Source: Escherichia coli | GTDB taxonomy: Bacteria > Pseudomonadota > Gammaproteobacteria > Enterobacterales > Enterobacteriaceae | NCBI RefSeq assembly: GCF_044647545.1 | Contig: NZ_CP172818.1 | DNA: 64,000 bases | Reading direction: 5' to 3' (one strand) | Part shown: positions 22,325 through 22,462 of the stretch, one piece after another | How positions within the stretch are numbered: position 1 is the first letter of the stretch | Layout: every line of letters begins with the position of its first letter | Position numbers and translations under genes: made by a program | Notes under the pieces: generated by a model | Database searches by the model: none | The model's input: the letters and a program-made list of their open reading frames with translations, nothing else | What the model was told of the DNA's origin: nothing

Positions 22325-22462
22325 TGGTTATGAATTACTTTTCAGCGGGGCGTTTTCTGCCGGTTGGGTTATTTACCACGCTGGATTTGTCACCTTCGGT
22401 AACTATTTTGCGCTGGTTAGATATTTTATGGTCCAGTCCAAGAATATGACGTGCCTGACGGT
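22325..22462 (-). CDS. sra: stationary-phase ribosome-associated protein Sra (45 aa)
   Basis: Hand translation of the minus strand gives [45 protein letters not shown] with a GGAG RBS; absent from the ORF track because it is under 60 aa. Confidence 0.85.

Follow-up and report, generated by a model that had tools for sequence, protein, structure and literature searches.

The ribosome hibernation factors include RMF, HPF and RaiA. RMF (ribosome modulation factor) has both a defined site and a defined activity, namely the formation of 100S dimers. The gene sra of Escherichia coli, whose product is likewise small and ribosome-bound, has been known since the period from the 1980s to 2001 and carries an annotation in nearly all E. 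coli genomes, with Izutsu et al. 2001 reportedly being the primary paper on it. Wada's RFHR 2D gels first revealed the protein, then called "protein D" (spot D of RFHR 2D-PAGE), and it was originally counted as the 30S protein S22 among the 54 ribosomal proteins (r-proteins) of K-12, hence the alternative gene name rpsV. In K-12, the protein, which is identical to the one considered below, attaches firmly to the 30S subunit and accumulates in stationary phase, and a dependence of its expression on RpoS and (p)ppGpp has been predicted. During exponential growth, sra is indirectly repressed by CsrA. Translational lacZ fusions of sra are active. Deletion of the gene originally gave no phenotype, but has been reported to raise antibiotic sensitivity under HipA expression. 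The primary papers and a major review term the function of Sra "unknown" or "obscure" and the factor itself "putative".

Here, we consider the sra locus in a window of 64,000 nucleotides from E. coli (NCBI RefSeq assembly GCF_044647545.1, contig NZ_CP172818.1), the window being the whole stretch of DNA that was analyzed. An earlier note, made from the sequence of the window by itself, had proposed that a 45-aa gene for Sra is real and had been missed by the length cutoff of the accompanying ORF track.

Identity of the reading frame

When all ORFs with a minimum of 20 aa near the site are listed, they include the frame for Sra, with an ATG start, 45 codons and a TAA stop:

22335-22472, minus strand: sra (rpsV, b1480) coding sequence, assigned from the ORF, the Pfam and NCBIfam matches, identity to K-12, the annotation of NZ_CP033850.1 and dN/dS

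The minus-strand sequence of this region reads ...CAGGATTGAGGAGTTAAAATG. The earlier note had given the gene as 22325-22462: the length (138 nt) and the strand stand, while the position lies 10 nt too far downstream, and a literal translation of 22325-22462 on the minus strand gives a frame with stop codons. Its recognition of the frame as Sra is upheld by several comparisons. The 45-aa product has a computed mass of 5,096 Da (5.1 kDa) and a computed pI of 11.04, with 11 lysines and arginines versus 4 aspartates and glutamates; a published table entry for Sra gives the same length and pI. It matches the Pfam family PF08136 (SRA_like) at 108.2 bits, as compared to a gathering cut-off of 25 (E = 2.6e-31), with residues 1-44 aligning to positions 1-46 of the 46-position profile, and the NCBIfam equivalog NF007473 at 74.5 bits, as compared to a cut-off of 35 (E = 6.6e-21). 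Across its entire length (45/45 aa) it equals Sra of K-12 MG1655 (b1480; RpsV, S22), and the two genes differ at two nucleotides, in codons 17 and 32, both being synonymous third-position changes. NZ_CP033850.1, the closest E. coli record in RefSeq, is 100% identical over a 1.3-kb query spanning the sra locus, as are several other RefSeq E. coli chromosomes, and its annotation at the matching coordinates is sra (WP_000841554.1). Accordingly, we assign 22335-22472 on the minus strand to the genuine and already annotated E. coli gene sra, with a probability of about 0.98; no contrary evidence bears on this identity.

Translation of the gene is indicated by published abundance data, which include a ribosome-profiling-derived value of 15,792 Sra proteins per cell given in a review; further, the study on CsrA lists ribosome-protected-fragment evidence for sra. 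Thus, the absence of a ribosome-profiling signal, which the earlier note had named as the observation that would speak against the gene, is not what the literature records.

Conservation and phyletic range

At least 80% of a 401-nt query centered on sra is present in 5,405 of 5,426 complete E. coli genomes, and in a sample of 40 rows from 5,412 matching genomes sra is annotated in all 39 full-length matches. Beyond the species, a search of 5.8 billion proteins recovered 66 relatives, all of which, except one short fragment, carry PF08136; their named sources are Escherichia, Shigella, Salmonella, Citrobacter and Intestinirhabdus. This narrow taxonomic range fits the proposal of a 2025 preprint that Sra is a fast-evolving protein of de novo origin within the Enterobacteriaceae, to which it is confined, with 44% substitutions between E. 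coli and Klebsiella pasteurii. In an alignment of 15 sequences, residues 1-22 are nearly invariant, with the C-terminal third being variable in both sequence and length.

The genomic context is also conserved. By identity to NZ_CP033850.1 and MG1655, sra in the window has bdm upstream, maeA downstream and a divergent osmC. Among eight loci fetched from other organisms, the complete order osmC (divergent)/bdm/sra/maeA is retained in Salmonella, Intestinirhabdus and C. freundii, and in four more bdm is absent and sra is flanked by osmC and/or maeA. One or both of the latter genes thus adjoin sra in seven of the eight loci, the remaining one (L009) showing a different context. As a side observation on the downstream neighbor, the mechanically called maeA ORF (20481-22214, minus strand) begins at a GTG at 22214 and encodes 577 aa; the start annotated in RefSeq is 22178, which gives 565 aa, a length shared by the homologues in other genera.

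Ribosomal protein or accessory factor

The original count of Sra among the 54 r-proteins of K-12 and its tight 30S binding raise the alternative that it truly is a structural protein of the ribosome, S22, as opposed to a conditional accessory or hibernation-type factor, and the name "30S ribosomal subunit S22" persists in some database entries. Several lines of evidence make this improbable. First, we searched the PDB, comprising 177,635 distinct sequences of chains of at least 20 residues and including the solved E. coli ribosomes, with the Sra sequence (phmmer) and with a profile of the 15 sequences, and obtained no match even at E <=10. Thus, when a core 30S protein is taken to be one for which the solved ribosome structures of E. 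coli contain an ordered chain, Sra falls outside the set. Second, its abundance moves in the direction opposite to that of the r-proteins: mass spectrometry values in a review are 1,835 copies (exponential) and 5,851 (stationary), and the combined published range runs from about 640-1,835 copies per cell to about 5,851 in stationary phase, i.e., a rise of ~3- to 9-fold while r-proteins fall. Third, quantitative mass spectrometry finds Sra bound to ribosomes early in stationary phase and, like RMF, gone from both ribosomes and the proteome within 6 days. Fourth, a restriction to Enterobacteriaceae with a proposed de novo origin is at odds with a structural component. In keeping with this, the current Pfam description of PF08136 is "Ribosome hibernation factor SRA".

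The contrasting proposal, that Sra is an accessory factor of the hibernation type, acting as a disordered basic peptide on 16S rRNA, has in our estimate about an even chance of being correct. Under it, Sra would probably be an unstructured basic peptide that becomes ordered upon 16S rRNA; it would dock on the 16S rRNA of idle 30S and 70S particles, where it would act as a hibernation-type accessory factor and may support RMF. Published work finds Sra to be without effect on the distribution of ribosome states. An AlphaFold2 model built from the 15-sequence alignment shows a short N-terminal helix at low confidence (pLDDT 67.8, pTM 0.28), and we therefore draw no structural inference from it. 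The window itself adds nothing on the 30S role or the binding site of Sra, and its biological import in this respect is small.

Selection on the frame and chance expectation

We next weigh the reading that the 45 codons form an open frame merely by chance, within non-coding spacer DNA that separates bdm from maeA. If the genes are approximated by greedily choosing long ORFs, ~9.3 kb of the window is left as intergenic sequence, which contains 114 ORFs of 20-79 aa, with 20 of them being at least 45 aa long; hence, the length of the sra frame by itself is not above chance. The same holds for its ribosome-binding site. The earlier note was right that one precedes the ORF, as a GAGGAG lies 5 nt upstream of the ATG. 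When candidate starts are scored by the predicted duplex energy with the 3' end of 16S rRNA, the sra start (-8.8 kcal/mol) ranks sixth among the intergenic starts whose ORFs reach 20 aa and second among the 67 ATG starts, with several spurious ORFs showing a Shine-Dalgarno (SD) score equal to or above that of sra. ORF calling at a 20-codon threshold with RBS scoring, which the earlier note had suggested as a check, therefore does place sra on a shortlist (sixth) but does not single it out.

The decisive evidence comes instead from homology, purifying selection and conserved synteny. A chance frame is hard to reconcile with the Pfam and NCBIfam E-values given above, and the frame is intact in nine divergent genomes, the changes between them being mostly in third positions. 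Codon comparisons with Salmonella, Citrobacter and Intestinirhabdus yield dS of 0.65-0.82 and dN of 0.07-0.14, i.e., a dN/dS of 0.11-0.18 (Nei-Gojobori) versus these three other genera, pointing to purifying selection on the frame; versus the most divergent metagenomic homologue the ratio is 0.47. In nine species, synonymous changes are nearly absent from codons 1-9. Moreover, the Sra protein has been experimentally detected in K-12. Homology, selection and the published protein data refute the chance-ORF reading, to which we leave a vanishingly small probability, and together with the conserved synteny they vindicate the proposal that the 45-aa sra is a real gene.

The reason for its omission is also as proposed, since the default 60-aa ORF listing lacks sra and shows only two plus-strand ORFs at the interval:

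22314-22520, plus strand: 68-aa ORF with a TTG start, antisense to sra
22553-22762, plus strand: 69-aa ORF, antisense to bdm

That the 68-aa ORF is the real gene and the minus-strand frame its antisense shadow has practically nothing to recommend it: it is longer than sra and passes the default cutoff, but it starts with TTG, has no Pfam or NCBIfam match and is annotated in no sampled E. coli record, the substitution pattern at sra tracks the codon phase of the minus strand, and we judge the plus-strand ORF to be spurious.

Transcription unit and putative control elements of sra

We delineated the following elements around sra, given in the order of transcription:

22574-22789, minus strand: bdm (71 aa), the upstream gene co-transcribed with sra (Pfam PF10684, 175 bits; NCBIfam NF008515, 175 bits; annotation)
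22563-22571, minus strand: candidate extended -10 element TGCTATGCT, directly after the bdm stop codon, proposed from conservation
22479-22506, minus strand: predicted leader hairpin of 7 bp, in which UCCUUAA (22500-22506) pairs with UUGAGGA (22479-22485), from single-sequence and alignment folds
22478-22483, minus strand: Shine-Dalgarno GAGGAG, read from the sequence, with a 5-nt spacer to the ATG
22268-22305, minus strand: intrinsic terminator of sra, with a 12-bp stem and a 4-nt loop followed by TTGTTTTTAT, from a terminator scan

The bdm-sra spacer of ~100 nt is strikingly conserved, exceeding the 3' half of the sra coding sequence across genera. Directly downstream of bdm, the motif TGCTA[T/A]GCT is retained in those five of the aligned genomes where bdm immediately precedes sra (E. 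coli, Salmonella, Intestinirhabdus, C. freundii and metagenome L007). An extended -10 with a C at -13 is the form typical of sigma-S promoters, and TGCTATGCT looks like such a sigma-S-like extended -10. It is a possible -10 element of a promoter belonging to sra itself. A scan of 22150-23150 with the sigma-70 consensus returned no minus-strand promoter and did not call TGCTATGCT, so that the assignment draws on conservation and on the usual form of sigma-S promoters. According to published work, sra has a promoter of its own and is in addition transcribed from that of bdm (PMC10746276).

The AGGAG of the Shine-Dalgarno is invariant in nine species. The leader hairpin is predicted to pair with it and thereby occlude it. 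Across the nine species, 95% of the cells of the stem are paired, and in four of them linked changes from U.G plus A-U to U-A plus G.U preserve the stem. The fold of the entire 121-nt leader does not differ from that of shuffled sequences (z = 0.2), indicating no unusual degree of structure for the leader taken in its entirety. As the comparative support is thus confined to the local hairpin, we regard it as no more than a plausible, putative translational control element. The stronger version, in which it is a dedicated translational switch confining Sra synthesis to stationary phase, appears doubtful to us; polyamines, temperature or a trans-acting factor could open such a switch. This idea was partly anticipated by a published RNAfold model with a "bulged-out" structure at the sra Shine-Dalgarno and by the stimulating effect of cadaverine on a translational fusion of sra.

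At the other end of the unit, the terminator folds at -20.1 kcal/mol (z = -4.4), with none of 200 shuffles folding as well. In the nine-species alignment, its main stem displays compensatory double changes in 6 of 10 pairs, with 94% of the cells paired, and this covariation was approached by none of 500 shuffles and by no slid-register control. A scan of the whole window with Rfam yielded nothing near sra, the only match being an element in fdnG. This is SECIS_3, a selenocysteine insertion element, at 14849-14907 on the plus strand (84.3 bits); selenocysteine insertion accounts for the split of the fdnG frame at an in-frame TGA into the ORFs 14267-14854 and 14903-17314.

Other small proteins of the window

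The earlier note had further surmised that other proteins of less than 60 aa may be hidden in the intergenic regions of the window, and the presence of an intact yddY (13 aa) proves it right. In the corresponding region of MG1655, curated annotation has three proteins below 60 aa, namely sra, yddY (13 aa) and yneP (40 aa). The relevant features of the window are:

33687-33728, minus strand: yddY, 13 aa, intact, with a CAGGAG ribosome-binding site, just upstream of dosC
42049-42246, minus strand: safA, 65 aa, a two-component-system connector (Pfam PF17073, E = 1.1e-47), just over the 60-aa cutoff

The automated PGAP annotation of NZ_CP033850.1 omits yddY, which at 13 aa is also below a 20-codon threshold. 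Chromosomal epitope tagging revealed both YddY and YneP (VanOrsdel et al. 2018), and low Mg2+ induces YddY in a manner that depends on PhoQP. Comparing the 114 intergenic ORFs of 20-79 aa to NCBIfam and Pfam gave three family matches: Sra, SafA and a fragment of an autotransporter pseudogene. Hence, among these 114, no ORF in the 20-59-aa range other than sra has a curated-family match except the pseudogene fragment.

These results have some methodological value. A 60-aa ORF track conceals the true genes sra (45 aa) and yddY (13 aa), and what it shows over sra is a spurious antisense ORF of 68 aa. Length and RBS score cannot tell sra from chance ORFs, but profiles, codon-aware conservation and curated annotation can.

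We found no counterpart of yneP in the window, which is explained by the replacement of the block to which it belongs by an anomalous stretch. This stretch of ~2 kb (38989-41060), which has no good match in the 5,426 complete E. coli genomes, stands in place of the ~10-kb pqqL-yddB-yddA-yneP-ydeM-ydeN block. It contains poly-G runs of ~48 G (39176-39223) and ~113 G (39251-39363), and the part of it from 39659 to 40055 shows only 78% identity to ydeM. It looks like a sequencing or assembly artefact and not like biology.

Two further regions differ between the window and NZ_CP033850.1. The segment 49160-50766 (minus strand) is absent from that record; it has two ORFs with the sizes and position of K-12 hipA and hipB, the likeness being one of size and position alone. 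As the sra region is 100% identical between the two, the window is a mosaic relative to NZ_CP033850.1. In the yddK/yddL region, the window (10981-12900) is ~2.2 kb shorter than NZ_CP033850.1 (10106-12611 in the compared stretch), the extra ~2.2 kb of the latter comprising a leucine-rich-repeat pseudogene together with an OmpC-like porin of full length. The ORF at 12606-12896 in the window, of 96 aa, has the same size as the truncated yddL of K-12.

Comparison with known systems

YddY (13 aa), YneP (40 aa) and Sra are all products of short intergenic genes that lie in one chromosomal neighborhood and are hidden at a 60-aa cutoff. However, YddY and YneP, unlike Sra, have no curated family model, and they came to light through epitope tagging and not as abundant ribosome-bound proteins.

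A further parallel is offered by RMF (55 aa). Both RMF and Sra of E. coli are small, basic, 30S-associated proteins with induction in stationary phase, and both are lost from ribosomes and the proteome with the same kinetics; a review has suggested that Sra supports RMF. The two have no sequence relationship, with Sra matching PF08136 only. Further, in contrast to RMF, Sra leaves the distribution of ribosome states unchanged and is absent from solved structures.

The closest described system is K-12 Sra itself, known as RpsV, "protein D" and S22. The gene in the window shares with it the same 45 aa, the same neighbors (bdm, maeA and osmC), the same Shine-Dalgarno and the same terminator, the two coding sequences being set apart by the two synonymous nucleotides only. 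The identity of sra is thus one that was already known, and the gene in the window is an ordinary representative of it with nothing novel.
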